From the IMG/VR virus record IMGVR_UViG_3300032322_002674, positions 1-45,457 of that record: a stretch of DNA of 45,457 bases. One strand, given 5' to 3'. Position 1 is the first letter of the stretch. Each line of letters begins with the position of its first letter. The notes beneath the pieces were generated by a model. That model saw only the letters and a program-made list of their open reading frames with translations, did not search any database and was not told the DNA's origin. Source of the DNA: a virus (Duplodnaviria > Heunggongvirae > Uroviricota > Caudoviricetes). Shown here in pieces: positions 1 through 43,196 of the stretch. The position numbers and the translations under genes are program-made.

Positions 1-2435
1 ATTATGGTTTCTTCTTTTTCCTTATCAACACTTACAGTTAATATATCACCTTCTTCTAAAGAACCATCCAATAATTTATTTGCAATTGAATCTTCAATAT
101 ATTTTTGAATTGCCCTGTTTAAAGGTCTTGCCCCCATTTTAGAATCATATCCTTTTTCTATTAAAAATTCTTTCATTTCTGTTGAAATTTCTATACCATA
201 ACCCATATCATTTACACGTTTTGTCAAATCTTGTAGGGGTATATTAACAATTTTTAATAAAGATTCTTTATCCAAAGATTTAAAATAAACAACTTCATCC
301 AAACGATTTAAGAATTCAGGTGAAAATTTCTTTTTAAGTTCTTTTTCAAGAACATATTTTGTATCTTCATCTTCATTTCTGTTTGATGTTTTAAATCCAA
401 CACCACCACCAAAATCATTTAATGTTCTAACCCCAACATTTGAAGTCATAATAATTAAGGTGTTTTTGAAGTCTATTTTTCTTCCTGTTGAATCTGTTAA
501 ATGTCCTTCATCAAACATTGGTAAGAAAATATTATATATGTCTTGGTGTGCCTTTTCAATTTCATCCAAAAGAATTACTGAATAAGGTTTTCTTCTAACT
601 TTTTCGGTTAATTCACCACCCTCATTATAACCAACATATCCTGGAGGAGCACCAACCAAACGAGAAACATTAAATTTTTCTCCGTATTCACTCATATCCA
701 TTCTGATAACATTTTCATCTGAACCAAACATTTCTTTTGCAACTTGTTTTGCCAATTCAGTTTTACCCACTCCACTCGGTCCTACGAATAAAAATACTCC
801 TATTGGTCTGTTATGTTTACGAATACCTGATTTATTACGTTTAATTGCAGATACCACTTTTTTCACTGCCTCATCTTGACCGATTACATTAGACTGAATT
901 GTTTCATCTAATGTTAACAATTTTTTATTTTCATTTTCAGTCATTTTTTGTACAGGAATATTTGTTATTGAAGAAATAACTTCATAAACATTATCTTCGG
1001 TAACTTCAATACGAAGTTTGTCTAATCTTTCTTCATACTTTTTTTGTTCTAACTCAAGTGAATCTCTTAATTTTTTCTCCTTATCACGAATTTTTCCTGC
1101 ATCTTCATAATTTTGATTTTTCACTGCGGTTTGTTTCTCTTTAACCACTATTTCTATTTCTTTTTCTAAATTTTTAATTTTTTCAGGAGTTACTTGAGTC
1201 ATTTTTAATCTTGACCCAATTTCATCCATAATATCAAAAGATTTATCAGGTTGAAATCTATCAGTAATATATCTTGATGATAATTGAACAATTTTTTCAA
1301 CAACTTCTTCTGAATAAGTTACTTTATGGAAATTTTCATAAGTAAATTTTGCTTGATTAAGAATTTTTATAGTGTCCTCATGATTTGGTTCATTTAACTG
1401 TACCATTTGGAATCTACGTTTCAATGCCCCATCTTTTTCAATTGTACGGAATTCTTCTAAAGTTGTTGCCCCAATGATTTGTATATCACCATTTGCTAAT
1501 TTTGGTTTTAGAATATTGGCAGCATCTAAACTACCTGCTGCAGAACCAGCACCAACAATAGTATGTAATTCATCAATGAATAGAATAACATCAGAATTTT
1601 TTTCTAATTCATCAAGAATTGCCTTAATACGTTCTTCAAATTGTCCACGATATTTAGTACCTGCTATTAAAGAATTCAGGTCTAACATATAAAGTGTTTT
1701 ATTTAAAAGTGGTTTAGGCGCAGTTTTATTGACAATTTTCATACCAATCCCAAACACTAATTGAGTTTTACCTGTACCTGGTTCTCCAACGATTACTGGA
1801 TTATTTTTCTTTTTTCTACCTAAAATCTGACAAACTCTATCAATATCAACATCACGACCAATTACTGGGTCAACTTTACCTTCTTCAACCCTTTTATTAA
1901 TATTCACACCAAAAGAATCTAATACAGGTGTTTTAGATTTAGTATTTTTGGTTGGTCTTTCTTTTTTATCATCTTCTTCATCACCTTCTGTTGCACCACC
2001 CATTTGTGATACTACTGTTTTGTATTTGGTTTCGATTTCTGTGAAAGTTTCTTTTGTCATGTTGTGGTTTTTTAAAATTTTATAAATATTGTTGTTTTTA
2101 TGAATTAAAGATGCAAATAAAACATCAGTTGTTGTGTAAGTATCTTTTGACTTTTTATATTCATATTCAGATGCAATGTTGAAAATTTCATCTAATTCTT
2201 TAGATACTCTTAATTTTTTAGAATTATTATTTAAAGAAAAAGTTTTTTCTAAACTAACTAAAAGATTATCTAAAATACCTTTATCTTTTATATAATTTAC
2301 AAAAGAACAATCTTCATCATTTATAATCAAAGAATATAAAAAATGTTCAGGTTTAACTTCATAGTCACCCAATTCTAATGCCTTTTTATGTGATAAATTA
2401 AGAATTTTTGTAACTTTACTTGTAGGTTTTCTCAT
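1..2435 (-). CDS. clpC: ATP-dependent Clp protease ATPase subunit (ClpC/ClpB family); 3' end runs off the window
   Basis: Absent from the ORF track; read manually from ATG at 2435 (MRKPTSKVTKILNLSHKKALELGDYEVKPEHFL, Clp-N like). Contains LDPVIGRD, Walker A GEPGTGKT, FIDELH, a UVR-type coil (AVKNQNYEDAGKIRDKE), second Walker A GPSGVGKT, LVGAPPGYVGY, and a VGF ClpP-docking loop, which favours ClpC over ClpB. Confidence 0.93.
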   Translation of the reverse strand, partial: MRKPTSKVTKILNLSHKKALELGDYEVKPEHFLYSLIINDEDCSFVNYIKDKGILDNLLVSLEKTFSLNNNSKKLRVSKELDEIFNIASEYEYKKSKDTYTTTDVLFASLIHKNNNIYKILKNHNMTKETFTEIETKYKTVVSQMGGATEGDEEDDKKERPTKNTKSKTPVLDSFGVNINKRVEEGKVDPVIGRDVDIDRVCQILGRKKKNNPVIVGEPGTGKTQLVFGIGMKIVNKTAPKPLLNKTLYMLDLNSLIAGTKYRGQFEERIKAILDELEKNSDVILFIDELHTIVGAGSAAGSLDAANILKPKLANGDIQIIGATTLEEFRTIEKDGALKRRFQMVQLNEPNHEDTIKILNQAKFTYENFHKVTYSEEVVEKIVQLSSRYITDRFQPDKSFDIMDEIGSRLKMTQVTPEKIKNLEKEIEIVVKEKQTAVKNQNYEDAGKIRDKEKKLRDSLELEQKKYEERLDKLRIEVTEDNVYEVISSITNIPVQKMTENENKKLLTLDETIQSNVIGQDEAVKKVVSAIKRNKSGIRKHNRPIGVFLFVGPSGVGKTELAKQVAKEMFGSDENVIRMDMSEYGEKFNVSRLVGAPPGYVGYNEGGELTEKVRRKPYSVILLDEIEKAHQDIYNIFLPMFDEGHLTDSTGRKIDFKNTLIIMTSNVGVRTLNDFGGGVGFKTSNRNEDEDTKYVLEKELKKKFSPEFLNRLDEVVYFKSLDKESLLKIVNIPLQDLTKRVNDMGYGIEISTEMKEFLIEKGYDSKMGARPLNRAIQKYIEDSIANKLLDGSLEEGDILTVSVDKEKEETI

Positions 2436-4516: not shown

Positions 4517-4939
4517 TTATTTAAATTTATAAAATAAAAAATCTTTAGATGATGAAAAATATTTTTCTAATATTCTACTTATTTTTTGAGTTGTTTCCAC
4601 CCAAAATTTATCTTTTATGTGTTTCTTATTTTTAACATAAAAAACCAATTCCAAAGAAAAATAAGTTTTTTTATCTTTTTTTAAACCTGATTCAGGAAAT
4701 TCAAAATTTAAGATAAAATTCTTATTAAAATTACTGTCTTTTTCAATACGTTTATAAATTCTTTTTTTTAGTTCACCCTCAAAGAATCTTATTTTTTTTC
4801 TACTTTCTAAAATATCTTCATAAATTGGTAAACCCCACCCGCAAATGGTGATGTAAAAACTTTCAGGATTATTTATAGTCGTAAATCCCCACTTAACTCT
4901 AAAGAAATTATTTTCGAGTTCGTATTCCTTTCCCTTCAT
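4517..4939 (-). CDS. hypothetical phage protein
   Basis: 140-aa ORF with typical composition, operonic. Confidence 0.7.
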   Translation of the reverse strand: MKGKEYELENNFFRVKWGFTTINNPESFYITICGWGLPIYEDILESRKKIRFFEGELKKRIYKRIEKDSNFNKNFILNFEFPESGLKKDKKTYFSLELVFYVKNKKHIKDKFWVETTQKISRILEKYFSSSKDFLFYKFK

Positions 4940-8256: not shown

Positions 8257-8916
8257 TTATTTTTTAAGGATTAATCCATCAACTAAACCGTATTCTACTG
8301 CCTCTTGACCTGTAAACCACTTATCACCGTTATTACAATCTTCTGCGATTTGTTCATAAGATTTACCTGTATTAATAGATAAAATATCATAAAGTTCTTT
8401 ACGTAACTTTTTCATTTCTTCCATTTGGATTTCCATATCAGTTGCCTTTCCCTGAGTTCCACCTAAAGGTTGGTGTATCATTGTTCTACTGTGTTTTAAA
8501 GAGAATCTTTTACCTTTTTGTCCTGATGATAATAAAACTGCACCCATTGATGCAGACATACCAACATTAATTGTTTGTACATCTGGTGAAATCCAATTCA
8601 TTGTATCATATATTGCCAATCCTGCTTGAACAGAACCACCAGGAGAATTAATATACATTATTATATCTTTTTTATGGTCTAAATTTTCAAGAAATAATAA
8701 TTGAGCAATTATTACATTTGCTGCTGTATCTGTTACAGGACCTCCAAAGAAAATTGTTCTATCCATCATTAATCTGTCAAAAACAGACATGATTGCAAAT
8801 CTTTTTTCTCTTTCTTCAACAATGTGTGGTGTCATCATTGAAATTTCTGAATTAATTTCTTTTTCATTCAATCCCAAGTCTTTTGAGAATTTTGTGAATT
8901 CATTTGTAAAGTTCAT
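8257..8916 (-). CDS. clpP: ATP-dependent Clp protease proteolytic subunit
   Basis: IIAQLLFLE, YINSPGGSV, AGLAIYDTM, SASMG (catalytic Ser), MIHQP (His). Confidence 0.97.
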   Translation of the reverse strand: MNFTNEFTKFSKDLGLNEKEINSEISMMTPHIVEEREKRFAIMSVFDRLMMDRTIFFGGPVTDTAANVIIAQLLFLENLDHKKDIIMYINSPGGSVQAGLAIYDTMNWISPDVQTINVGMSASMGAVLLSSGQKGKRFSLKHSRTMIHQPLGGTQGKATDMEIQMEEMKKLRKELYDILSINTGKSYEQIAEDCNNGDKWFTGQEAVEYGLVDGLILKK

Positions 8917-12648: not shown

Positions 12649-13875
12649 TTAAAAACAAACATTAAAAAATTCTTCTAATTCTTGTTTTGTTTTTATATTA
12701 ATTATTTTACCCTTATTTTTATTAAAAAATTCCATCCATGTTGATACCACTTTATTTACTTTCCAAGAATCAAAATAACTGATTACTATATCTTTAAATT
12801 CTTTTAAATCTATTACTTCACCGTTTTCAGTAGAATTATTAAACCAATTAAATAATCTATTTTTAAAACGTTCACAACCCTTATAACCTGAATCCTGCCA
12901 TTTACCACCTTCAAAATAATGATTAATAAACATCAAATACATTCTAAGAAGTTGTGGTTCATATTTATTTAAATCTACAACATTATTAAGTCTTTTACTC
13001 ATTTTATTACCATCTTCACCAAGAATCATACCTTGATGTACTACCTTCTTAAAAGGTTCATCAAAGTCAATATAACCAATATCATATAAAAATTTAGTTA
13101 TAAATCTTGAGTAAATAAGATGAGCACAAGCATGTTCATTTCCACCTACATATATATCAACTGGTTTAGTTTTATCATACATTATTGTATAAAAAGAAGA
13201 ATCAACAAATGTATCTAAAGTATCACTTTCACCTTCCATTGGTATTGGGCAACCCCAACTTCTTTGCCTTGATACACACCAATCTCTAAAATTATCTTCT
13301 CTTAACCAATAAAGTTGTTGTTTTTTAGTCTTTTCAGGGTAGTCAACTTTTTCTAAATCTTTAATAAGTCTTTCTCTATAATCTGTAATTTTAAAATACC
13401 ATTGTTCCATTTCTTTTTGTTCTATTATTGCACCACTTCTTTCACCCCTTCCTTCTATAATTTGTTCATTTGCAAGAACTGTTTTATCAATTGGGTCCCA
13501 ATTAACTAAACCCATTTTTTTATAAGCAAGTCCATGTTTATAAAGTTCTTTAAATAACCATTGTGTTTTTTCAATATAATAAGATTCAGATGTAATTAAT
13601 TTCTCTTCAAAAGAAGTATTCATTCTAACCATTTCCTTGCGGAAATTTTCTATATTCTCATAAGTTACTTCTTTAGGATTTCTACCAATTTTTTTTGCAT
13701 AATTTTCTGCTGGAAGTCCAAAAGAATCAAATCCAAATGGTTGAAAAACATTATATCCTTTAAATCTTTGTATTTTACAATAAGAATCTACAATTGAGTA
13801 GTTATACCAATGTCCACAATGTAATCCACTACCTGATGGATAAGGGAACATAACTGTAATAAATAAATTTTTCAT
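12649..13875 (-). CDS. leuS: minimal leucyl-tRNA synthetase (class Ia), ~408 aa, lacking the CP1 editing domain
   Basis: MFPYPSG-LHCGH (HIGH), GFDSFGLPAENYA, TVLANEQI, QWYFKITDY, RDWCVSRQRSWG, DTLDTFVDSS, YVGGNEHA, KMSKR. Start reassigned to ATG 13875, 4 nt after a TATATTTG box. Confidence 0.9.
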   Translation of the reverse strand: MKNLFITVMFPYPSGSGLHCGHWYNYSIVDSYCKIQRFKGYNVFQPFGFDSFGLPAENYAKKIGRNPKEVTYENIENFRKEMVRMNTSFEEKLITSESYYIEKTQWLFKELYKHGLAYKKMGLVNWDPIDKTVLANEQIIEGRGERSGAIIEQKEMEQWYFKITDYRERLIKDLEKVDYPEKTKKQQLYWLREDNFRDWCVSRQRSWGCPIPMEGESDTLDTFVDSSFYTIMYDKTKPVDIYVGGNEHACAHLIYSRFITKFLYDIGYIDFDEPFKKVVHQGMILGEDGNKMSKRLNNVVDLNKYEPQLLRMYLMFINHYFEGGKWQDSGYKGCERFKNRLFNWFNNSTENGEVIDLKEFKDIVISYFDSWKVNKVVSTWMEFFNKNKGKIINIKTKQELEEFFNVCF

Positions 13876-13879
13876 AATA

Positions 13880-13887
13880 CAAATATA
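13880..13887 (-). promoter_or_regulatory. Bacteroidota-type -7 box (TATATTTG) for leuS
   Basis: Exact TAnnTTTG 4 nt from the ATG; TTG about 20 nt upstream; back-to-back with an ATATTTAT motif on the + strand (13916-13923). Confidence 0.65.
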
Positions 13888-13928
13888 ATAAAAAAACAAT
13901 AAAAAGTCAATGCAAATATTTATTTTAT

Positions 13929-14132
13929 ATGGATATTTTATTAACAAATAAGGAATTGGTTGAAAAAATGGGTAAACTTTTTAAAGAACATGAGGATTTA
14001 AAAGTTAAAATTTATAATGATATGATTTTGTTGGAAGAAAAAGAAAAAGAATATATTGAATTATATGAAGAATTAAATAAAAGAACTGGTTTTAAATCAG
14101 AAACAAAGGTGGAGGAAAAAATAAATGAGTAA
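13929..14132 (+). CDS. small coiled-coil hypothetical protein
   Basis: 67-aa ORF after the ATATTTAT motif; overlaps the next gene start. Confidence 0.65.
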   Translation: MDILLTNKELVEKMGKLFKEHEDLKVKIYNDMILLEEKEKEYIELYEELNKRTGFKSETKVEEKINE

Positions 14133-17252: not shown

Positions 17253-18710
17253 ATGGGATTTTACAGAACATATTTTACAAAGAATAATACAATACTTAGA
17301 AATCGTTTGGTTAATACTGCAAAAAACCAAGTAACAGAATTATATTACGGTAAAGATGTTCCTATATTTTCAGGTAATACAAGTGGTTTTAGTGGAACAA
17401 CAGATTTTTCCAGATTCTTATTTCAGTTTGATGTAACTGAATTAAGGGAAAAATATATGGATAAAACCATCATATCTTCCACCACAATCACTCATAAACT
17501 AAAAATGACTAATACATCATCTTTTGATAGAAGTCTCTTAGGAAAACCGTTTAAAGACTATTTTAGAGCAACATCATTTGATTTAATTCTTTTTAGAATA
17601 CCAGAATCTTGGGATGAAGGTGTTGGATATGATTATAATAATAGAAATTCAATTAATTTCCAAACAAATGAAACTTTTTTATTGGGTCCATCAAATTTCA
17701 TAGAAAGGGGAACAAACCAAAATTGGACATTAACTGGTGCAGTTGGTGGTAATCCAACAATATTAAGGGAACAACATTTTGATAATGGTGATGAAAATCT
17801 TGAAATGGATATTACAGATATTGTAAATGATTTAATTACTGGAACAACCGAAAATTATGGTTTTGGTATTGCATTTAGAAGTGATTATGAAAGATTAGTT
17901 ACTGATGAAAAATATTATGTTGGATTTTTCACAAAATATACACAAACACTTTTTGAACCACATATAGAAACAGTTTGGGATGATACTGTACTTGATGATA
18001 GAAACAAATTTTATCAAAACAAATTAAATCGTCTTTATCTTTATGCAAATATTGGTGGAAATTATGAAAATATTGAAATAGGTCAGGTTAAAATATATGA
18101 TAATGAAGGTAATGTTTTTAGAACATTTTCATCCCAACAAATAAAACAATCAACCAAAGGTGTTTATTATGTTGAATTTAGTGTTTTAGATACTGATTCA
18201 GAATGTCAGGTTAATTTTATTGATGTATGGAAAGATATATACTATAATGGTGTAAAACAACCTGATGTGCAAATGTATTTTACAATACAACCAAATACAA
18301 AATTCTTTTATATAAATAATAATGATAAATTACCAACCAATTATTCAATATCATTAAATGGTATTAAAAAAGATGAAACAATTTTAAGGGGTGATATTAG
18401 AAGAATTACAGTTTTTGCAAAAAAAGATTTTGAAAAAAATAATGAAGTTATTGATGGATTAAAATGGAGAATATATTTAAAACAAGGTACAGAAGAAATA
18501 CCTATAACAAATTGGTTAGATGTTAATAGGGGTTATACTTATAATTGGTTTGAATTAGATACCAGTTTTTTATTACCAACGATTTATTATTTGGATATTA
18601 AATTAGAAACAGGAAATTATGTTAAAACCTATAATGAAACTTTAAAATTCTTTGTTGTTGGTGTTGATGATAAATTTAATTTATTAACTGCAAGGGATTA
18701 TCTTGGTTAA
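17253..18710 (+). CDS. putative virion structural protein (beta-rich, Ig/jelly-roll-like)
   Basis: 485-aa ORF after the ATATTTAT motif; SRFLFQFD, ESWDEGVG, MDITDIVN, NYGFGIAF pattern typical of phage tail/baseplate-associated proteins. Confidence 0.55.
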   Translation: MGFYRTYFTKNNTILRNRLVNTAKNQVTELYYGKDVPIFSGNTSGFSGTTDFSRFLFQFDVTELREKYMDKTIISSTTITHKLKMTNTSSFDRSLLGKPFKDYFRATSFDLILFRIPESWDEGVGYDYNNRNSINFQTNETFLLGPSNFIERGTNQNWTLTGAVGGNPTILREQHFDNGDENLEMDITDIVNDLITGTTENYGFGIAFRSDYERLVTDEKYYVGFFTKYTQTLFEPHIETVWDDTVLDDRNKFYQNKLNRLYLYANIGGNYENIEIGQVKIYDNEGNVFRTFSSQQIKQSTKGVYYVEFSVLDTDSECQVNFIDVWKDIYYNGVKQPDVQMYFTIQPNTKFFYINNNDKLPTNYSISLNGIKKDETILRGDIRRITVFAKKDFEKNNEVIDGLKWRIYLKQGTEEIPITNWLDVNRGYTYNWFELDTSFLLPTIYYLDIKLETGNYVKTYNETLKFFVVGVDDKFNLLTARDYLG

Positions 18711-19519
18711 ATTGGTAATTTAACTTTTGAAAGAATTTTATTTGAAATATGAGTATATATTTCGGTAGTTTTTACATTTGAATGTCCTGCGATATTAGAT
18801 ATTATTTTTAAATCTGTTCCTGTTTCTAAAAGAGTTGTAAAACATGAATGACGCAGATTATGAATTGATGTTTTATAATCAATATATTTTTTATATATTT
18901 GTTGACAAGATTTTATAGAATATTTTCCTGAATTTTGTCCATTAAATAAATAAACTTTTGGTTTGTATATTTTATAATAATCACGAAGAAGATTTAAAAT
19001 ATTTTCTGATAATGGTACAATTCTATCTTTTTTTCCTTTTGAGTTTAATATATTTATAATCATTCTTTTTGAATCAATATCTTCGATTTTTAAGTTTACT
19101 ATTTCTGAAACTCTTAAACCTACTGAAAAACATAAAGATAATATTGTTTTATGTTTTAAGTTTTTTATATTATTAATTTTTTTAATAATTGTTTCTGAAT
19201 CAATTACTTTAGGTAATTTCTTTTCTTTTAAAGGTCGAATAAAAGAAATTTTATCATATTTTTTATTTAGGACTTCTTTATATAAAAATTTTAGGGAACT
19301 GATTATTTGATTTTGTTGTGAAGATGAAGAATAATTGTAATTTGTAACGTATTCTTGGAAATCAGAAGAATTTAATCTTGTAAATGATTTATTCTGTTTT
19401 TTAAAAAATTCACAAATATAATGTAAATAAATATTTTTAGTATTTTCAGAAAAACCCTTTAATTTCAATTTTTGGACACAAATTTCGTAATAGTTAGTTT
19501 CTTTCATATTGAAAATCAA
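18707..19519 (-). CDS. tyrosine recombinase (integron-like integrase) with N-terminal SAM-like domain
   Basis: Complete catalytic set: GLRVSE (R), KGKKDR (K), HNLRH (HxxR), AGH, TTEIYTH (Y). Likely ATG start at 19507. Lacks the IntI-specific insertion before the YLF patch. Confidence 0.93.
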   Translation of the reverse strand: MIFNMKETNYYEICVQKLKLKGFSENTKNIYLHYICEFFKKQNKSFTRLNSSDFQEYVTNYNYSSSSQQNQIISSLKFLYKEVLNKKYDKISFIRPLKEKKLPKVIDSETIIKKINNIKNLKHKTILSLCFSVGLRVSEIVNLKIEDIDSKRMIINILNSKGKKDRIVPLSENILNLLRDYYKIYKPKVYLFNGQNSGKYSIKSCQQIYKKYIDYKTSIHNLRHSCFTTLLETGTDLKIISNIAGHSNVKTTEIYTHISNKILSKVKLPI

Positions 19520-19559
19520 TTAGTTATGGGTAGTTAGATATATACAATAGTTAGTTGCA
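19511..19559 (+). other. attI-like primary recombination site
   Basis: Immediately 5' of the recombinase; three TAGTTA direct repeats (19521, 19531, 19548). The last gives GTTAGTTGCA (19550-19559), which is 9/10 complementary to TACAACTAAC (20338-20347) at the end of cassette 1. No hairpin. Confidence 0.68.
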
Positions 19560-19596: not shown

Positions 19597-20295
19597 ACAT
19601 TTTTATTCTTTTTTTTGCCTACACACTACAAAAATATAAAAATTTTTAGTAAAAAACAATTTTTTAATATATTTATATAAAAATAAAACAATTTTATATG
19701 AGAACAACAAAAATTACTTTAAATGAATTACGTAGCTTAATAAAACAGATTATTAAGGAAGAAAGAATGCTGAATGAATCCCTAAATAAAGATATTAGGG
19801 AATTTGGTAAGGATTTAGGAAAATATTTAACAAATTCTGGTTTTAAAGTTAAATTTATGAGTGGTAGAATGTCTGATGAAGATATGAAGCAAATAAAAAC
19901 GAACACAAATCTTGTGGGTTTAGTGTTAGACCAAAATGATTCACAACAATCCTTGTACATGCACTTCAATCCAAAAGACTTAAACAATATAGAAAAAATA
20001 GTTGATAAATTTCAATTATCACCATATAGAGGTAAAGTTATGTCTAAAGGTTGGACAAATAAACAAGTTGTTGGTGCATTAAATCCTGGAGATATTTTTA
20101 AGTGGGATAGTCAAAAGGATAGTGGTCTATATCAATTTTTTAGACTAAAAAAGGTTGACAGTAAAGTTTCCAATGTGTAACCCCAACACACAAAATTAAT
20201 AAAAAAATTTGGAAAAAAAACAACAGCCAGTTAGTGAAAGTTTAAGATTAAGAAATTATTTTAAATAATCCACCACACAAAAAGAATAAAAATGT
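19597..20295. repeat. 17-bp perfect inverted repeat flanking the cassette 1 gene
   Basis: ACATTTTTATTCTTTTT (19597-19613) / AAAAAGAATAAAAATGT (20279-20295). Confidence 0.7.
19698..20180 (+). CDS. cassette 1 protein, putative capsid-internal protein
   Basis: 160-aa ORF with its own ATATTTAT motif (19669-19676); leader MRTTKITLNELRSLIKQIIKEERMLNES has several (I/L)xE sites. Confidence 0.7.
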   Translation: MRTTKITLNELRSLIKQIIKEERMLNESLNKDIREFGKDLGKYLTNSGFKVKFMSGRMSDEDMKQIKTNTNLVGLVLDQNDSQQSLYMHFNPKDLNNIEKIVDKFQLSPYRGKVMSKGWTNKQVVGALNPGDIFKWDSQKDSGLYQFFRLKKVDSKVSNV

Positions 20296-20340
20296 CTTAG
20301 TGCTTTGATTGGAGTTCCGTAGTAAATAATCCGCAACTAC

Positions 20341-20395
20341 AACTAACAGCGTGTATAAAACATTAAAACGATTTTATACACGCAAAACGTTATGC
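20341..20395 (+). other. attC-like site 1 (55 bp)
   Basis: AACTAAC-A-GCGTGTATAAAA-loop-TTTTATACACGC-AAAAC-GTTATGC; 12-bp perfect stem. Confidence 0.85.
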
Positions 20396-20414
20396 GAAAA
20401 TTTGCTTACCACCC

Positions 20415-20741
20415 TCAATACTCCGAATGAACTTTAGGATTGATTTTTTCAATTTCTGCATACGCTTCTTCAAACTCTTTTGTAATGTGTGGCTTTATTG
20501 GCATCTGTTTCGCTATGTAAGCCATACACGCATCTATTCCTTTCCAACTATATTTTTTGTAAATAGGTAGCACCCATTCCAAATCTTGTGCATCTATCAA
20601 TACCATATCTGCACACGCATAATTGAAAAAATCATTGGCGTTCATAGCTATTCCAAATGAGCCTTTAATCAGCCCACGCAAATCATCGCATAACAGCACA
20701 TTGGCGTTATTGCTTTCCGTTTTCAAATTATCATTTTCCAT
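20415..20741 (-). CDS. cassette 2 hypothetical protein (antisense, starts inside attC2)
   Basis: 108-aa ORF; visibly more GC/CpG-rich than the backbone; ATG at 20741 lies in the hairpin loop. Confidence 0.75.
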   Translation of the reverse strand: MENDNLKTESNNANVLLCDDLRGLIKGSFGIAMNANDFFNYACADMVLIDAQDLEWVLPIYKKYSWKGIDACMAYIAKQMPIKPHITKEFEEAYAEIEKINPKVHSEY

Positions 20742-20808
20742 ATTATTAAATTTAGTGTTTCAATTAAGCATCTTTGTGGCAACAACGCCAGTCTGCAAAA
20801 CGTTATGT
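20688..20808 (+). other. attC-like site 2 (~121 bp)
   Basis: GCATAAC-A-GCACATTGGCGTTATTGC ... GCAACAACGCCAGTCTGC-AAAAC-GTTATGT; 15/18 stem. Confidence 0.85.
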
Positions 20809-20812
20809 TTAA

Positions 20813-21059
20813 TTAAAAATTATTACGTGGGAAGTACTCCAACCCAGTTTCACTTATCATTATATTGTCAACAAATTTTATATCAACTTCTTCGTATTGT
20901 AACTCACCATTATAATACCTTGATATATGTAGTTTTTCACCTGTTCCATATCTACATTCAACTGATGAAGTATCATCGTCCCATGTAGGACACCAATCAG
21001 GTATTTTAATTTTACTGGCTTTCTGCTTCGTTTGAAAGTTTTTTGTTTAAATTATCCAT
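20813..21059 (-). pseudogene. cassette 3 gene disrupted by an internal deletion/frameshift
   Basis: Leader MDNLNKKLSNEAESQ* (21059-21012) is out of frame with a ~69-codon body KASKIKIPDWCPTWDDD...EYFPRNNF* ending at 20813. Confidence 0.65.
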
Positions 21060-21122
21060 TGTTTTTCGTATTAAGTTTTGAGGTATTAATCAGCCACCTC
21101 GTTTAGCTGCCAAACGTTATGA
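21016..21122 (+). other. attC-like site 3 (left arm mostly deleted)
   Basis: Right arm AGCCACCTCGTTTAGCTGC-CAAAC-GTTATGA is intact; only TGGCT (21016-21020) of the left arm remains. Confidence 0.65.
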
Positions 21123-21446
21123 AACATTCTTCATCCTTCTATTGATGTTCGCTAAAATCATATCATACTCGATAAATATGACATCACCTTCTCGTTCATC
21201 ACTTTCTTTATATCTACTCGGTTTGTAAAAATCTCTAACCATTTGTTTAGCTTCGACATATTTACCTTCGTTTAATAATGGTTCAATTTGTTCTGATATG
21301 ATTTTAGCTAATTTCTCACCCATAACATCAATATATCTATAATATTCCAATGAACGTTTCATAACATCAGATATATTCAAGTTTTCTGATTCGGTTAATT
21401 TAAACTTGTTAAATTTGTCAATGTGTTGTCTCATTTCTTTACTCAT
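21117..21446 (-). CDS. cassette 4 hypothetical protein (antisense, starts inside attC4)
   Basis: 109-aa ORF; ATG in the attC4 loop; its TAA stop is the TTA of the GTTA core at 21116-21119. Confidence 0.75.
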   Translation of the reverse strand: MSKEMRQHIDKFNKFKLTESENLNISDVMKRSLEYYRYIDVMGEKLAKIISEQIEPLLNEGKYVEAKQMVRDFYKPSRYKESDEREGDVIFIEYDMILANINRRMKNVS

Positions 21447-21918: not shown

Positions 21919-22656
21919 CTAATGCAAAATTTCATAATCCCTTTCTTCTATATATCCTGTTTTAAAATATTGATAAACATCCTTATAATATTTTAATGAA
22001 TCTCTTATTTGTTTGGTATTCAGTTCAGTCATAGTTCTGATATATTCAAATATTAAATTTTTATTATATTTATTATTTCTTAAAAAATATTCTTGTATTT
22101 GATACCAGTTATCAAAAATATCAACAAGTGCCAAACCAACTTTTAATTCTTCTTTTGTCATATTTTTTTCATTTTCCTCAATTTTATCAGAAATCACAAC
22201 AGATAAATTTTTAAAAACCTCAATAATTAATTCATTATAATTTAAATTTAAAGTTTCAGTTTGTAAATCCTTTCTATCATTTTCCATTGTTTCAATATTG
22301 GATGGTGAAATATCTTCATAAGATGCATTAGTTTTAGTATTTTTCTTTGATTTATTAATTTGTACAATTAAATGTCTTTTAATGATTGTTCCAAAATAAG
22401 AATATGATTTTTTATTTTTTTCAGGTTTAAATTTATCCATTTTTGTTACTAAAAAAGATAAAACATCATTATGAGTATCATCATAATTTAAATCTGGACG
22501 ATATAGTTTATATCTTCTTATTATTGAATCGGTCATTTTTTTAAGAGGATTTTTTAAATGTTTATTAAAAATACTATTTCTTTCCTCTTGTGAATTACTT
22601 TCTAAGTACCTTACTACTGCATCCTCTTGTTCTTTACCCCAATATCCTTTTGCCAT
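21919..22656 (-). CDS. phage sigma-factor-like protein (sigma70 region 2; T4 gp55-like)
   Basis: DVLSFLVTKMDKFKPEKNKKSYSYFGTIIKR resembles the region 2.2-2.4 pattern (F-D-P-E-K..F-A-Y-F-T). Confidence 0.6.
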   Translation of the reverse strand: MAKGYWGKEQEDAVVRYLESNSQEERNSIFNKHLKNPLKKMTDSIIRRYKLYRPDLNYDDTHNDVLSFLVTKMDKFKPEKNKKSYSYFGTIIKRHLIVQINKSKKNTKTNASYEDISPSNIETMENDRKDLQTETLNLNYNELIIEVFKNLSVVISDKIEENEKNMTKEELKVGLALVDIFDNWYQIQEYFLRNNKYNKNLIFEYIRTMTELNTKQIRDSLKYYKDVYQYFKTGYIEERDYEILH

Positions 22657-32550: not shown

Positions 32551-33987
32551 ATGTTAAAAATTTCTGACATATTAAATGAAATTGTTCAAGAAAATTTAAA
32601 TAAACTAAAAGAAGGTTTAAATCTAACATCTCGTGCTAAAAATAATTTAGAACAAAGGGAAGTATTTATAAAAGATAAATTAAATAAACCGATTGAAGAA
32701 TTAGATTTAAATGTTTTAGAATTAAATTTAAATAAAAATCAATTAGATATAATTGGTAAAAAAATAGTAGATAAATATCCATTTATAGAATATAAAGTTT
32801 TCCCATCCCATTTTCGTGAAAATTTAATAAGTTCAGAATATTATTTATTTCTTTATTTAAAAGAAGATAAAGATGTTTTTATTAGATTAGATTTATGGAT
32901 GGGTGATAAAAAAATAAGTGATGTTATTAATTATTTTAATAAAAAATTAGAAGAAAATAATTTAAATGAAAATACTGACCCAGCAGTTACAGATATTGCC
33001 AGAGCAAAAATATCTTTAAGTAAATCCAAAGATATTTTAAGGGATATGGGGGTTAATTTCGGTCAAGGAAAATGTTCTATACCAATTGGTTATAGTGGTG
33101 ATTTTTTTATGAATTCTTATGTTAGATTAATAAAATATAATGATATTAATAACCCAGTATTAACCCCAGGTAGTCAAAAATCACAAGATACATATAGATT
33201 ATTTGGTTCTGCATTAAATTTTTCTAATGTAAATGTTAATCAAAATCAACAACCCAATGGTGGTTCTCAAATAACATTATCTGGTGTTACTTTTGAATTT
33301 CAAGGTAATATGTGGGGAAAAATTAATAATAAAAAAGTTTGGTTAGATAACAAAGGAATCGAAGTTAATAATACAGTTTCAAATATATTGAATAGTATGT
33401 ATATAACAAATGAATCTAAAAATAAATTTTTAACATATAATAATATTGATTATGTAAAAACAAATATTGGTTGGGCAACATATAATAGAACAACTGGTAA
33501 AAGTGGTATGGTTATCACTAAAAAAAATAATGTACAACCAAATCAAACAACATTAAATAATGAATGGTTTAAAATTAATCCAATACCTAAAAATTATTCA
33601 TTAAAATATAATGGTTTTGATTATAAATTTGGTGAAGTTAAAAAAATTCAATCACCTTTAACTAAAAATTTAAATCAACAACTAACTAATGAATGGTTAA
33701 AACAAAATTCACAAAATCAAACCAATCAAATATCAAATGTAACTGTACTTGATGATATTTCAATAGAAAGTACAAAAGAAAAATTAGTTAATTGTGAAAT
33801 AGAATTTTATGAATTTGATTCTTCTTTTTTGAATAAACCTTTGCAAAAAGGATTTAGACCAAGAAAATTAACACCAGGTTCTTTTATAAAATGTAAAACA
33901 AATTATTATATAAAAATTTTAAAATCTTATCCCAAAATGAATAATTGTGAATGGGGTGTGATTTATATAACCCAATTAGAAATTTAA
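32551..33987 (+). CDS. putative virion protein carrying one copy of the EGLxLTSRA module
   Basis: ATATTTAT at 32529-32536; leader with ILNE/LKE; internal NNEW/TNEW repeats; directly upstream of the tape-measure-like gene. Confidence 0.6.
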   Translation: MLKISDILNEIVQENLNKLKEGLNLTSRAKNNLEQREVFIKDKLNKPIEELDLNVLELNLNKNQLDIIGKKIVDKYPFIEYKVFPSHFRENLISSEYYLFLYLKEDKDVFIRLDLWMGDKKISDVINYFNKKLEENNLNENTDPAVTDIARAKISLSKSKDILRDMGVNFGQGKCSIPIGYSGDFFMNSYVRLIKYNDINNPVLTPGSQKSQDTYRLFGSALNFSNVNVNQNQQPNGGSQITLSGVTFEFQGNMWGKINNKKVWLDNKGIEVNNTVSNILNSMYITNESKNKFLTYNNIDYVKTNIGWATYNRTTGKSGMVITKKNNVQPNQTTLNNEWFKINPIPKNYSLKYNGFDYKFGEVKKIQSPLTKNLNQQLTNEWLKQNSQNQTNQISNVTVLDDISIESTKEKLVNCEIEFYEFDSSFLNKPLQKGFRPRKLTPGSFIKCKTNYYIKILKSYPKMNNCEWGVIYITQLEI

Positions 33988-38314: not shown

Positions 38315-38746
38315 TTAAAATGCACCGCCAAAATCATCAGTTAATTCATTATTATTTCTTGGTGGAACATCATTAAAATTTGCAATTGCCTCAACTCTAT
38401 TCATTGATTCATCACCATTTGGATTAAATCCTGGTCTAACTTCATCAAATCTTTGATTTCTAAGTACTTGCCATTGAATTATTCTATCAGTTCTGAATAA
38501 TCTCCAACCTGGAACTTCATTTGGGTGGTCAGATACTCCATCCCTTTGCCATGCCCTAATTACAGGGTTATTTGCCTTAGATAAACCAAATGCAACAGGT
38601 TCAACTGTTCTATAACCTCTAACATTAACTGTATCACCTATATAATAAAATCTAATAACCTTTCTATTAGTTATTGCATCAAGTACTCTGTATCTTGCAA
38701 CACTTTCAGAAATAATTTCCTTAAATAGATTATATATTGATTTCAT
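38315..38746 (-). CDS. stand-alone WYL-domain protein
   Basis: AITNRKVIRFYY, RTVEPVAFG, IRAWQ, WRLFRTDRI; no HTH; ATATTTAT at 38752-38759. Confidence 0.8.
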   Translation of the reverse strand: MKSIYNLFKEIISESVARYRVLDAITNRKVIRFYYIGDTVNVRGYRTVEPVAFGLSKANNPVIRAWQRDGVSDHPNEVPGWRLFRTDRIIQWQVLRNQRFDEVRPGFNPNGDESMNRVEAIANFNDVPPRNNNELTDDFGGAF

Positions 38747-38762
38747 TATTTATAAATATCAA

Positions 38763-39683
38763 TTATTTTATAATAGGTGAATTTAAAGGATGCAAAAATC
38801 TATCAAATTCAAAAATAGGTTGTTCAGATATTTCAGAATAAAAAGTTTCATTTAGATTTTTTCCAAACATCTCATAATTCAATAAGTTAATTTTTTTGTA
38901 CAATTTCTTTTCGTAATTGTTTATTTTTGATTTAATCATTCCTGACCAATAAGAAATAAAGTGTTCTGTATTTCTTGTTCTATCACCTTTTAATTCCTTA
39001 AATTTATTTATATATTCATCAATATTGTTAACATTTTTTAAATGTTTCTTAAAATCAAAATTTTTATATTGATTTAGATATTTAAATTCTTCTGAATTAA
39101 AAAATATATCCCAACTTTGTTTTGTGTTATTTGGATTACTATTTTTTATATGATGTAGTATAGAATTTATTCTAGCAGATTCCTCTGAATTTAAAAAATA
39201 GTAAAGTGTGTTAATGAAATAATTCCATATATCATCTTCATTATAAAGTTTTTGATATATTTTTGTATTTTCAATGTCTTTATTAATTCTATTGTTATTA
39301 AATGTTTTTATTAACTGATAAAGATGTAATAATTCATGTGATAAAATATATTCTATATTTTCTTCATTATTAATATTTAATGTAATTCCTATCTTTGCAT
39401 CATATACATCAAAATCACCGTAAAAATCAAATCTATTGGAACACCAACCATGATTTATGGTATAATCATTTTTGATTATAATCAATTCTATTAATAGTCC
39501 ATTTATATTATATTCTTTTAATTTAATATTTTCTTTTAAATTAATTTTTATTTCATTTTGTGATGTTAAATTCCATTTTTTATTGTTATATTTATTTAAG
39601 ATAATATTATAAAGATATTCTAAAGTCGGTTTCATTTCTTTTAAATACCCACTTTCAAGTAATAATTCCAATAAATACCTCAT
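38763..39683 (-). CDS. HEXXH zincin-like protein
   Basis: ILSHELLHLYQ with downstream SEESAR; likely start 39683 (MRYLLELLLES), since the longer ORF overlaps the upstream gene. Confidence 0.6.
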   Translation of the reverse strand: MRYLLELLLESGYLKEMKPTLEYLYNIILNKYNNKKWNLTSQNEIKINLKENIKLKEYNINGLLIELIIIKNDYTINHGWCSNRFDFYGDFDVYDAKIGITLNINNEENIEYILSHELLHLYQLIKTFNNNRINKDIENTKIYQKLYNEDDIWNYFINTLYYFLNSEESARINSILHHIKNSNPNNTKQSWDIFFNSEEFKYLNQYKNFDFKKHLKNVNNIDEYINKFKELKGDRTRNTEHFISYWSGMIKSKINNYEKKLYKKINLLNYEMFGKNLNETFYSEISEQPIFEFDRFLHPLNSPIIK

Positions 39684-39690
39684 AAATAAA

Positions 39691-39936
39691 TTAAATAAAA
39701 TCTGGATAAGTGTAAGAAGAATTAAAACGATTTCTTGATGTTGCATTACCTCTTTCCAAAATATCCAAAGAAGAACCAATTGAACCATTTAATTCACCTT
39801 TACCCTTAATATCTCCAGTAGATAATGCATTTGGGTGATTTGTGTCATATAATGAACCTGGTTGTTCGTTATATATATTTCTTGCCTTATTATCAGGTCT
39901 TTGTACATTTCCTATTAATTCTAATGGTGATGGCAT
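39691..39936 (-). CDS. small putative virion protein
   Basis: 81-aa ORF (HPNALSTGDIKGKG); ATATTTAT at 39954-39961. Confidence 0.65.
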   Translation of the reverse strand: MPSPLELIGNVQRPDNKARNIYNEQPGSLYDTNHPNALSTGDIKGKGELNGSIGSSLDILERGNATSRNRFNSSYTYPDFI

Positions 39937-39963: not shown

Positions 39964-40461
39964 CTAAAAATATTTTATTGAATAGACAATTCTTTTTAAT
40001 TGTTCTTTTCTAAAATCATTTCTAATAATTCCTTTCATTTTATTTTTTCTTTTATGTGGGTATTTTACATAATTAAATGCATCATTATAATTCATTTCAG
40101 TATTCTCAACTATTTTTTTTATTCTTTCTTCACCTGCATTAGATTTTTCTTTTTTAACCATTAAAACATATTCTTTTATTTTATCAGAAAAAATATCATA
40201 ACCGTTAAAAAGAGTTTGTAACCTATCTATAAAAAATTCATTAAAATAAACTTTTTTGTTTCCATCAGTTTGTGGTGAAAAATTTATTGTATCAGGATTA
40301 ATATTCTTTATGAAATCATTAATTATTTTATATGCAGTTGCAGTTGAACGAACCGTATAAAACTATATAATAAAATATAGTAATTTCCTAATTCTTTCAT
40401 TCACATAATGATTTAAAAATTTATCTTCACTAATAATATTTTTAATAAATTCTATTGTCAT
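39964..40461 (-). pseudogene. ORF interrupted by a single in-frame TAG
   Basis: ATG 40461 overlaps the upstream TGA; the frame is continuous with ORF 39964-40161 except for TAG at 40363-40365. Confidence 0.55.
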
Positions 40462-43196
40462 AGATTATTTTTTATTCCTCTTGATGTTGTTGGAACTTTG
40501 TCAATACCTAATGATGGTTTAACCATTTTATTTTTATCTTTTGTATGTGTTTTTTTAAACTGATTATCCAAACCTATATCATATAGGGTTTCTTTCTTTT
40601 TATGTATTTGACCTCTGTATTGATTTAAAATATTTTCAATCCAACTTTTCATTTCCAATCCACCTGCAAGATAAAAATCAATTCCATCATTATTTTTGTC
40701 AAAAAAGTTTTTTAACCTTTTAATTTCATAATAAGAAATAGTATTTTGATTTAAAAGGTAGTTTGAACGTTTTGATGACATTCCATATTCTTTTTGGTAT
40801 TTTTTTATTTCTTCTTTAACAAAACCAGGTATTACAAATTCTTTTCCTTCTAATTCAGAATTTGTTTCATTAAGTTTACCAAAACTATCATATTTTGAAT
40901 TATCATTTTCTTCATATTCTTTCATTTTTTCTAATGCATCACCTAATTTATTAAATCCATGAAATGTTGGTAAATTTGGGTGTACTAAAAGTATATCGAA
41001 ATGACTAAATCCAATAAATAAATTTTTCAAATAATCAGAATATATTATTATACTTATTCTATCAAATGTTATAGGGAAATTAATTTTTTTATTTAGTTCC
41101 CTTTCAAATTTTTCTTTTAATTTTTTTAAATTAGTATGATACAACGTAAAAAACCCCAAATCAGATGTTGTAAATTCTTCAATTGGTTTTTTTAAAATCT
41201 GATTTATATATTCTTCCCTTTGTTTTTCTTGTTGTGATGCACGAGATTTTATTTTATCACCTAAACCCTCTTTTATAAAATCATCTTCAATGTTACCACC
41301 AGTCAATATTTTTTCAATATTTTCTAAAGAATCTTTATCTAAATCAAAAGTATCATTATATATATTATAATGTCCTATAATATCCATATCATCATAATAA
41401 AAATATCCATAATACAGAACCCCAACATTAATCCAATCATCATCTTCAAGTGAAGGATTTAATTCTAAATTATCACTTAATAAACCCCTTCTATTTAATA
41501 TTTCTTTTAATTCGTTTTCATAATATTTTATTCTTTTATACCAATATTTAATTTGTTCAGATAATTTAGTTATTTCTTTTCTTTTTTCTTCATTAACAGA
41601 ATCAAATACTTCTTTTATTGGATTATATTCGTCATCCAAAACCATTCCCCAATTACTTTTATTTACTTGGGTTTTATTTATATATTCAATTTTTTGTTTT
41701 AGATTTTGGTTTGCACGAGAAGTTAATTTTAATCCTTCTTTTATTTCCTTTTGTTTAAAAATTCCTTTAAAAGTTTCTTTTTCTCTTTCAATAATTTCTT
41801 TTCCTTTTTGTATTAATTCTTTTATTGTATTTGCACTACCAAAAACTCTAACTGGTTGATTATAAGAAACCCCATTAGATAATGTTCTTCTTTCTATTGT
41901 AGAATAAGAATAAGTTAAATCAGGCAAATTACATCTAAAATTAACATCTTTAAGTTCAAATGTAACTGAATTAATAAATTTACCTTTTAATCCTTGTCTT
42001 TCTTCTATTTCATAATCATAATCACCCATTTCTTTAATTATGAAATCACTTATTTTGTAAGTATATTTTGGGTGGGTATCTAATAAAAAATTATATTCAG
42101 GATTTGATAAATTTTCTAAACCTTTTTTTAATATTTGATTTATATATTCCTCCCTTTGTCTTTCCTGGTCTCCAGCACGAGATTTTAAATTTAATCCCTC
42201 ACTTATATTTTCTTTTTTTAAAAAATCCAATAATTCACCAACAGTTTTAAATTCCTTATATAAAGTTATTTTTAAATTTTCTAATTCAGTTTTAATTAAA
42301 AGAATGAAATCATCCCAAAATTCAATTCTATAATAACCACTATCATCTAATGAAAAAGTAATTTTTGTTATATCATCTCTAAAATCCTTTTCAATTTCAT
42401 GATATGGTTCTTGTTGTAATTTTTGAAGTTTATCAATTATCTTAACATAAATTGGTTTTGCATTATCATCACCAATAAATCTAATTTCTTCTGGTGTTAC
42501 ATCATTAATATTTTTGGATAATATATTTCTAATATATTCTTCCCTTTGTTTTTCTTGTTGTGATGCACGAGAAGTTAGTTTTAAACCTTCATTTATTTTT
42601 TCACTCTCATATTTTATCTCTAATTTTTTTATTTCTTCATAAACCTTCGGTAAATAAAAATTACCTATAAAATCAAAAATTTCTTTGTTTGTTAAATTAT
42701 AATTATATATAATACTATCAATTATTCTATTATATGTTTCAGGTATGTGTATTATACTTTGGAACTCTGTGTCAATGTTTTTTTGTTTATCATAACTTAA
42801 ATGTATTGGAATAACAGGATAATTATCCCAAAAAGGTGTGGCATAAAACAAATATTTGTCATTTTCCCAACTTACAACACCTTCCAAACTATTTTTATAA
42901 ATTTCATAACCTTTATATTGACTTGGTATATTATTATTTATATTACCAGCAAATTCATTATAAAATGATTCTTTTTCTTTTTCATTTAAATCCAAATAAT
43001 CAAGTTCATTATAATATATTACTTGTCCATTATCAAATTTATGTCTAACATATTTTCGTTTTATATCATCTGGTAAAAATATAAAAACTTTTACTGGTAA
43101 ATTAAATTTTTCCTTATTTTTAATTTTATTTGAATAAAATTCTATTGCCTTTAGTTCTTGTTGATTGGCTCTAGAAGTTAGTTTTAAATTACCCAT
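40458..43196 (-). CDS. 912-aa modular putative virion (head-internal) protein with five repeat-delimited modules
   Basis: Recurrent (I)xE-GL(K/N)L(T/K)SRAxQQExQREEYI motif. Confidence 0.7.
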   Translation of the reverse strand: MGNLKLTSRANQQELKAIEFYSNKIKNKEKFNLPVKVFIFLPDDIKRKYVRHKFDNGQVIYYNELDYLDLNEKEKESFYNEFAGNINNNIPSQYKGYEIYKNSLEGVVSWENDKYLFYATPFWDNYPVIPIHLSYDKQKNIDTEFQSIIHIPETYNRIIDSIIYNYNLTNKEIFDFIGNFYLPKVYEEIKKLEIKYESEKINEGLKLTSRASQQEKQREEYIRNILSKNINDVTPEEIRFIGDDNAKPIYVKIIDKLQKLQQEPYHEIEKDFRDDITKITFSLDDSGYYRIEFWDDFILLIKTELENLKITLYKEFKTVGELLDFLKKENISEGLNLKSRAGDQERQREEYINQILKKGLENLSNPEYNFLLDTHPKYTYKISDFIIKEMGDYDYEIEERQGLKGKFINSVTFELKDVNFRCNLPDLTYSYSTIERRTLSNGVSYNQPVRVFGSANTIKELIQKGKEIIEREKETFKGIFKQKEIKEGLKLTSRANQNLKQKIEYINKTQVNKSNWGMVLDDEYNPIKEVFDSVNEEKRKEITKLSEQIKYWYKRIKYYENELKEILNRRGLLSDNLELNPSLEDDDWINVGVLYYGYFYYDDMDIIGHYNIYNDTFDLDKDSLENIEKILTGGNIEDDFIKEGLGDKIKSRASQQEKQREEYINQILKKPIEEFTTSDLGFFTLYHTNLKKLKEKFERELNKKINFPITFDRISIIIYSDYLKNLFIGFSHFDILLVHPNLPTFHGFNKLGDALEKMKEYEENDNSKYDSFGKLNETNSELEGKEFVIPGFVKEEIKKYQKEYGMSSKRSNYLLNQNTISYYEIKRLKNFFDKNNDGIDFYLAGGLEMKSWIENILNQYRGQIHKKKETLYDIGLDNQFKKTHTKDKNKMVKPSLGIDKVPTTSRGIKNNL
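41206..42572. repeat. 41-bp perfect intragenic direct repeat
   Basis: ATATATTCTTCCCTTTGTTTTTCTTGTTGTGATGCACGAGA at 41206-41246 and 42532-42572; degenerate copies near 41700, 42150, 43160 and on the + strand near 32620. Confidence 0.85.

Follow-up and report, generated by a model that had tools for sequence, protein, structure and literature searches.

Internal proteins of phage T4 form a diverse set with nothing in common but a capsid targeting sequence (CTS) of 10 residues, and the prohead protease gp21 cuts them after Glu (PMC9026906, PMC3012670, PMC5694885). The ejection proteins of phages phiKZ, 201phi2-1 and SPN3US are also processed after Glu, by a gp21-related protease (PMC5694885, PMC7411985). 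Integrons, which carry gene cassettes and attC sites, have been described as well, with some of their parts found in phage genomes (PMC4889954, PMC9892861), where they were reported as borrowed bacterial elements without leaders of the kind discussed here (PMC9892861). We analysed a stretch of 45,457 nucleotides (the window) from IMG/VR record IMGVR_UViG_3300032322_002674, which forms the opening 45 kb of a viral contig (173,457 bp, 24% G+C, estimated 82% complete) and contains four small genes, cassettes c1 to c4, beside the gene for a tyrosine recombinase. An original prediction, made from the letters alone, held that the cassettes are tailored for packaging into the phage head. This proved plausible for a subclass of cassettes with short N-terminal leaders; c2 and c3 are untagged, and c4 lacks the promoter-like motif that precedes c1. 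The two leader-bearing genes of the window are laid out as follows.

19669..19676, plus strand: promoter-like motif ATATTTAT, 22 nt upstream of the c1 ATG at 19698
19698-20180, plus strand: c1 open reading frame (ORF)
19698..19778, plus strand: c1 leader, 27 codons, ending Met-Leu-Asn-Glu
19779..20180, plus strand: c1 body, a 133-residue alpha/beta domain with an isoelectric point (pI) of 9.6, modelled with a predicted local distance difference test score (pLDDT) of ~90
20222..20300, plus strand: DNA element conserved 3´ of c1-type genes, containing GTTA and ending in one arm of a 17-bp inverted repeat
21117-21446, minus strand: c4 ORF, 109 aa, its first 28 codons inside the 129-nt hairpin site 4
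21390..21446, minus strand: c4 leader proper, codons 1-19, of leader family A (alignment A4), ending Leu-Thr-Glu
21117..21389, minus strand: hairpin-encoded extension (codons 20-28), then the 81-residue helical c4 body, which starts at its own Met29

Relatives of the array were sampled by fetching 80 loci around relatives of the recombinase, which gave 257 bounded cassettes (median 391 nt) in 209 protein families. The 28-residue N-terminus of c4 recurs at 96-100% identity on ~30 other protein clusters with differing remainders, and the c4 body is in turn joined to at least 9 different leaders. The 27-residue c1 leader is found at ~70% identity on ~10 other proteins, whose bodies are of several kinds, and in one case it stands there as two tandem copies. 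Leader families A and B (alignments A4 and A5) also stand in front of further unrelated cassette proteins in the related arrays. One short N-terminal peptide is thus present on unrelated proteins of one phage lineage, as would be expected of a capsid-targeting peptide.

All of the recurrent leaders end in hydrophobic-hydrophobic-(Asn/Thr)-Glu, and the final Glu is invariant in alignments A4 and A5. Within residues 5-35, this four-residue pattern occurs in 12% of the 209 cassette families, compared with 3.4% of backbone ORFs and 2.7% at internal positions of cassette proteins (p ~0.001). The leaders therefore end, at the level of sequence and by a rule that is short, in a Glu with a hydrophobic residue three positions before it. 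For c1, Glu27 is invariant across 29 homologues, and the residue three before it is always L, V, I or M, while the stretch upstream ranges from 8 to ~250 residues. Among 69 relatives of the c1 body, the domain lies at varying positions in proteins of 147-706 aa, including multi-domain ones, and is always preceded by the invariant Glu with its hydrophobic residue three earlier, whatever lies upstream.

Purifying selection acts on the leaders at the level of the peptide. For families A and B pooled, the proportion of synonymous differences (pS) is 0.75-0.84 and that of nonsynonymous differences (pN) is 0.12-0.16, with similar ratios in the c1 leader family; for the c1 leader itself, pN is 0.08-0.14 and pS 0.24-0.58. 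The pN/pS ratio is 0.19 for family A, 0.16 for family B and ~0.2-0.3 for family C, with synonymous sites near saturation, and Arg and Ser codons of the leaders switch between codon families. AlphaFold2 models both window leaders as detached helices of low confidence (pLDDT 48-62) ahead of confident bodies, the helix covering residues 8-23 in c1 (pLDDT 48-62) and residues 3-17 in c4 (pLDDT 54-61).

Leader-bearing cassettes are also set apart by what precedes them. Either ATATTTAT or TATTTATA lies at most 40 nt upstream of the start in 18 of the 25 leader-bearing families and in 3 of the 184 other cassette families (Fisher p 1e-17), as against 0.2% of control positions. The number of ATATTTAT copies in the window is as expected by chance (26, with 24 expected from shuffled sequence), but their placement is non-random: 39 of the 109 copies in the genome sit 5-33 nt upstream of a same-strand ATG, including that of the terminase gene. 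The motif also stands upstream of c1-type genes on three independent short contigs (L088, L090 and L091) and, in relatives, before the gp21-type protease gene (3/3), the terminase gene (2/2) and a scaffold-like gene (1/3). It had been proposed that c1 has this motif in common with the structural genes of the phage; this is true of the terminase gene, but the window genes that were called structural or late match no structural family in PHROGs or Pfam. We also noted a 245-aa protein adjoining the array (window 21919-22656, minus strand) with weak sigma-70/ECF-like matches (TIGR02937 2.7e-5, below cut-off), which could be a candidate phage sigma factor for the ATATTTAT motif.

T4-type head machinery is present in most of the complete relatives. 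The large terminase of this contig (contig 88723-90393) is of T4 gp17 type, with 28-30% identity to those of Flavobacterium phage immuto, T4-like cyanophages and Aeromonas phages. In 4 of the 5 complete relatives with the same recombinase (287-362 kb), we detected Peptidase_S77 (E 1e-8 to 1e-27) and Gp23 (E 1e-63), all above the Pfam family cut-offs, encoded close to terminases 43-52% identical to the one here. The capsid proteins of the relatives carry hydrophobic-hydrophobic-(N/T)-Glu followed by a small residue ~10 residues ahead of the first block alignable to mature T4 gp23. The N-termini of their proteases carry Leu-Ile-Glu, as does that of T4 gp21 (PMC9026906). Two further observations concern these genes. 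A 140-aa ORF of the window (4517-4939, minus strand) is 28% identical to a small gene beside the gp21-type protease gene in loci L175 and L176; in the window, no protease gene adjoins it. In relatives G001 and G003 (L189, L190 and L192), the terminase was matched in separate pieces within single open frames of ~1000 residues, a sign that the large terminase may contain an intein-like insertion in some relatives.

Only ~10 of 150 cassette representatives match a Pfam family and ~93% match none, and c1-c4 themselves gave nothing above noise in Pfam, PHROGs or NCBIfam. The cargo that could be named is the following.

Loci L001-L080, 6 kb upstream of the recombinase: three orphan DNA methylases, Tad6, ART-PolyVal, an Rv2179c-type exonuclease, an RNA ligase and ExoX

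Tad6 is a Thoeris inhibitor, and the named cargo lends the cassette pool an apparent anti-defence flavour. One cassette with a family B leader (L005:4281-4793) encodes an ART-PolyVal ADP-ribosyltransferase whose catalytic domain starts directly after the leader, and in P0103 the c4 leader is joined to a ParB/Srx-like body.

Because the leaders are portable, are selected as peptides, end in a Glu of the kind that T4-type proteases use and are coupled to a promoter motif of head genes, in a phage family that has a T4-type protease, capsid targeting is plausible for the leader-bearing subclass. We put this reading forward tentatively, as one that approaches an even chance but falls somewhat short of it. 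A cassette of the subclass would be an expression-and-address module made up of the head-gene-type promoter motif ATATTTAT, a start codon and an N-terminal helix of 17-27 residues that ends in hydrophobic-hydrophobic-(Asn/Thr)-Glu. On this model c1 would be a complete module, and c4 a leader fused to nine hairpin-encoded residues whose promoter motif has been lost. After binding the assembling head core, as the T4 capsid targeting sequence does, the leader would be cut off behind the Glu by a T4-type prohead protease, and the freed body would be carried in the head and reach the host together with the DNA. Late timing, packaging, cleavage, injection and any anti-defence role are all steps that we infer.

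Several observations weigh against capsid targeting. The three-residue cleavage rule is weak evidence: (I/L)xE endings, which had been the argument for leaders, are at chance: 38% of 239 genome ORFs have the pattern among their first 30 residues, the figure for an internal control stretch is 37%, and [IL]xE falls within residues 5-35 in 39% of backbone ORFs and 46% of cassette ORFs. Backbone late genes had been said to bear similar leaders, a claim that fails because profiles of the three leader families matched only the cassette genes c1 and c4; no backbone ORF of the 173-kb contig carries one. The sequences quoted in the original prediction were mostly present, namely ATATTTAT, the starts of c1 and c4 and three of the four backbone tetrapeptides (at 32551, at 38746 and at an internal Met of 38763-39788), while no ORF of at least 40 aa starts at 40461. 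Neither Pfam nor tblastn with the genes of relatives detected gp20, gp21 or gp23 on the 82%-complete contig; Peptidase_S77, Gp23, Portal_T4, Phage_capsid and Peptidase_S78 were all searched for there and none was found, and of the head genes of Flavobacterium phage immuto and four relatives, only the terminase was matched by tblastn. One near-complete relative is also without detectable Peptidase_S77 or Gp23. The gp23 maturation site of the relatives is inferred from the Glu pattern in their capsid proteins and from the T4 propeptide. Only 12% of the cassette families are tagged (~88% are not), with about three leader families and few independent origins. The tagged bodies are mostly acidic (median pI 5.2), where basic bodies like those of T4 internal proteins had been expected, and in two complete relatives the leader genes lie in or near the array, away from the head genes. 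The sole indication of late timing would be the motif common to head genes.

Both window genes have difficulties of their own. The orientation of c1 is opposite to that of all other cassettes and it has its own 3´ element; for these reasons, c1 may be a module inserted next to the recombinase and not a true cassette. For c4, comparison with the counterparts in L026, L049 and L067 shows that a small deletion has removed the promoter motif, and a Met of its own follows directly after the hairpin, so the c4 body may be made without the leader. Capsid targeting is partly supported for c1 and more weakly for c4, because the c4 leader is of the same kind but the promoter motif has been lost.

The explanation that survives best besides capsid targeting is that the leaders are functional peptides with a role other than head loading, such as a helix for oligomerisation, stability, docking on another part of the virion or recognition by a phage ClpC-like/ClpP system, or else an N-terminus tuned for translation start in a host without use of Shine-Dalgarno sequences. 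We regard this as rather unlikely, although selection on the peptide and portability would fit any common peptide function. The phage does encode a ClpB/ClpC-type ATPase and ClpP, one tagged protein has a sub-threshold MecA-like match, and the acidic bodies and the lack of head genes near the tagged genes would sit well with another role. A T4-type protease site is, however, the best explanation both of the invariant Glu, with its hydrophobic residue three before and a variable stretch upstream, and of the coupling to the motif that protease and terminase genes carry, and a conserved helix of 17-27 residues would be needless as a pure translation aid. As to the Clp genes themselves, the window encodes a ClpB/ClpC-type double AAA+ ATPase (3-2435, minus strand; AAA_2 5e-64, ClpB_D2-small) and a full ClpP (8257-8916, minus strand; CLP_protease 3.5e-71), which look like a phage-borne unfoldase-protease pair and not like a head protease.

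A less probable explanation, and in our view an unlikely one, is that the promoter-leader block acts chiefly as DNA, as a module that serves expression and is shuffled by homologous recombination, in the manner of the PeSL (early promoter plus stem-loop) cassettes (PMC2839356, PMC4122927), with the peptide a tolerated by-product and the peptide of hairpin-encoded leaders dictated by the recombination site. For hairpin-embedded leaders, the last 5-9 residues are indeed fixed by the 3´ stem arm and the GTTA core, and change with the stem class; in c4 itself, the 3´ arm and GTTA core of site 4 are translated as codons 24-28. The DNA of the c4 leader is near-identical across many cassettes, and 60-65% of the long hairpins hold a start codon that reads through the site. 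The 3´ element of c1 would fit too: it also follows c1-type genes in L088-L091 and is conserved as DNA, not as protein, because it is read in different frames. (Its inverted repeat is perfect, with the partner arm at 19597-19613, upstream of c1.) Against this, families A, B and C keep their peptide with the synonymous sites near saturation and with Arg/Ser codon-family switches, and 24 of the 25 family A and B leaders lie outside hairpins. Judged by pN/pS, the leaders of families A, B and C are not a mere by-product of the recombination site, and we keep that explanation for the last residues of hairpin-embedded leaders. Nor do the arrays fit PeSL cassettes defined by an early promoter and stem-loop without a common coding part, since the translated leader is selected and the motif goes with head genes.

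Chance alone, with (I/L)xE common in an AT-rich, I/L/E/K/N-rich proteome and the cassettes ordinary small phage genes, would fit the control-level frequency of (I/L)xE and the ATATTTAT count but is highly improbable, being contradicted by the recurrence of leaders on unrelated bodies, the selection on the peptide and the promoter coupling.

The minus strand is the reading strand of the recombinase and of three of the four small genes, and the remaining features of the array are listed here in order.

18707..19519, minus strand: Xer/IntI-like tyrosine recombinase of the array, 270 aa from a TTG start, with an ATG at 19507
19523..19529, no strand assigned: recombinase-proximal core, the last of the array, GTTATGG on the plus strand and TAAC on the minus strand, with the core as in the array sites
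20344..20392, minus strand: hairpin site 1, 49 nt, with TAAC, a 12-bp stem and GTTA; folding z -4.3
20415..20741, minus strand: c2, 108 aa, its first 18 codons inside hairpin site 2
20691..20805, minus strand: hairpin site 2, 115 nt, with the core AACGTTATG at 20799-20807
20813..21046, minus strand: c3, a 77-codon frame without a start codon
21362..21490, minus strand: hairpin site 4, 129 nt, enclosing the c4 start and leader

Each repeat unit reads, on the minus strand, TAAC, 4-5 nt, stem, loop, stem, 1-2 nt and GTTA. A further core at 21113-21121 has no partner arm, and the TAA stop codon of c4 falls inside this next core. The core AACGTTATG is present in 3 copies in the window, with 0.15 expected. 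When folded as pieces of 76-87 nt, sites 2-4 showed no significant structure; the full 115-129-nt sites were detected by a wider scan. The 80 related loci contain 338 TAAC...GTTA sites of the same build, nearly all of them at most 6 kb upstream of the recombinase, with discrete hairpin lengths (48, ~79, 88, 115, 125 and 195 nt) and constant spacers (4-5 nt and 1-2 nt). As in integron sites, paired imperfect palindromes with conserved AAC/GTT cores lie between single genes, and the stop codon of an array cassette is often inside the next core. Blocks shared between loci (at least 88% identity) start at the TAAC core in 32 of 78 cases and end 3-6 nt into the next core in 20 of 78, with hardly any breaks at the GTTA side. 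What moves is therefore a hairpin together with the gene downstream of it. The usual integron unit, an ORF followed by its hairpin with crossover at the GTTA side, was considered and rejected on the same breakpoints, and the genes, some with a promoter motif of their own, read towards the recombinase and are not promoterless ORFs with an attC read away from an integrase.

The recombinase matches Pfam Phage_integrase (2e-31) and Phage_int_SAM_4, and scores 165 bits with NCBIfam XerA and 148 bits with the integron-integrase model TIGR02249, both under cut-off. For TIGR02249 the cut-off is 265 bits and the protein covers model positions 7-207 of 315; for PRK15417 it scores 86 with a cut-off of 435. 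By these two profiles, the 270-aa protein is not an integron integrase with the IntI-specific extra helix. The region that holds c1 to c4 is best explained as the recombinase-proximal end of an integron-like, hairpin-bounded cassette array in a large AT-rich phage, and the platform is integron-like, not a canonical integron. An 11-nt direct repeat at 19489 and 19546 and a stem-box-like sequence of the hairpin sites that adjoins the last core make the region at 19489-19556 reminiscent of an attI with accessory binding sites.

The cassettes circulate among phages and not in host arrays, a point on which the original prediction was borne out: viral contigs as long as 362 kb encode 123 relatives of the recombinase, 52-67% identical, with arrays of hairpin sites upstream. 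Among cellular organisms, the closest relatives of the recombinase belong to Bacteroidota, and the host is therefore probably of this phylum. Homologues of c2 and c4 come from metagenome or viral contigs, with the closest c2 homologue 1.2 kb upstream of the recombinase on a 266-kb contig; on that contig (L172:3281-5875), a TnpB/OrfB_IS605 gene and an RtcB RNA ligase gene lie just upstream of the array. The related-locus search found no relatives of c1 among viral contigs, the 80 related loci gave no tblastn match to c1-c3 or to the flanking backbone genes, and the model of the c1 body has no fold match in PDB or BFVD (template modelling score ~0.3).

The two remaining cassettes of the window are outside the leader-bearing subclass, and for both of them the capsid-address idea fails. 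The leader of c2 (a cassette of 36% GC in a window of 24%) is polar and dictated by the hairpin; it does not end in hydrophobic-(N/T)-Glu, and no promoter motif precedes it. The other, c3, preceded by a 15-codon ORF in another frame, is a broken cassette.

Most of the remaining contig genes matched no family in Pfam or PHROGs searches. Among those of the window, we noted a truncated class I tRNA synthetase (12649-13947, minus strand) and a 912-aa protein (40458-43196, minus strand) in which a linker of ~25 residues is repeated five times, each copy starting directly after hydrophobic-x-Glu (of the type Gly-Leu-Lys-Leu-Thr-Ser-Arg-Ala); the protein itself begins at the linker. One copy of this linker is present in a 478-aa protein (32551-33987, plus strand), and short look-alikes occur in the contig ORFs at 158503-159024, 72012-72977 and 85086-88688.

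Taken with the cassette platform, capsid targeting leads to a wider proposal that we consider possible but distinctly doubtful: T4-related Bacteroidota jumbo phages may run an integron-like platform of their own, in which part of the cassette pool would be ready-to-load head cargo, such that one recombination event would add an injected effector, with the ADP-ribosyltransferase, the ParB/Srx-like nuclease and putative inhibitors as candidates. If so, these phages would have an exchangeable stock of proteins that reach the host along with the DNA, ahead of all phage gene expression and at an ideal time for disarming host defences. The T4 internal-protein principle would extend to uncultured Bacteroidota jumbo phages, and its link to a site-specific recombination platform would explain rapid change of the cargo set. 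The leaders would single out injected effectors among thousands of uncharacterised small phage proteins, and phages of this group could be engineered with them as packaging tags. Even if the leaders are not addresses, selected and portable peptides on unrelated cassette genes need explaining.

The closest known system is that of the T4 proteins IPI, IPII, IPIII and Alt (PMC9026906, PMC3012670, PMC5694885), which the leader-bearing cassettes resemble on five counts at the level of sequence. A short N-terminal peptide is common to otherwise unrelated small proteins; it ends at a hydrophobic-x-Glu site; in the array relatives, the protease, capsid protein and terminase are of T4 type; related phages differ in their sets of such genes; and, as with Alt, one tagged cargo is an ADP-ribosyltransferase. 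Unlike the T4 system, in which the CTS has 10 residues and the internal proteins are basic, the leaders have 17-27 residues in three new sequence families and the tagged bodies are mostly acidic. The tagged genes also differ in lying in a recombinase-associated hairpin array far from the head genes, and searches of this 82%-complete contig did not recover the protease gene.

Integrons are like the present array in having a tyrosine recombinase beside a series of short single-gene units, in the imperfect palindromes with conserved AAC/GTT cores that separate these units and at whose core shared blocks break, and in highly diverse cargo (here 209 families among 257 cassettes) that includes orphan DNA methylases. 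They differ in that the recombinase of 270 aa falls short of the integron-integrase cut-offs and aligns with no more than the first two thirds of the model, the hairpin is 5´ of its gene, the genes read towards the recombinase and some hairpins contain a promoter motif, start codon and leader. In contrast to the borrowed integron parts of other phages, the cassette system is native to the phage lineage. The PeSL cassettes of T4-type phages are similar in that conserved promoter/stem-loop blocks flank small variable ORFs and genes are shuffled, but their motifs are early promoter-terminator motifs, thought to act by homologous recombination without a dedicated recombinase, and they have no common peptide. 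Finally, the phiKZ-type giant phages are also jumbo phages that load many proteins into the head and cut N-terminal propeptides after Glu, there measured by mass spectrometry. Their cleavage rule (A/S/G-x-Glu) and their fixed backbone genes, which are not cassettes, set them apart, while their paralogues share N-terminal propeptide sequences in a way comparable to the cassette leaders.

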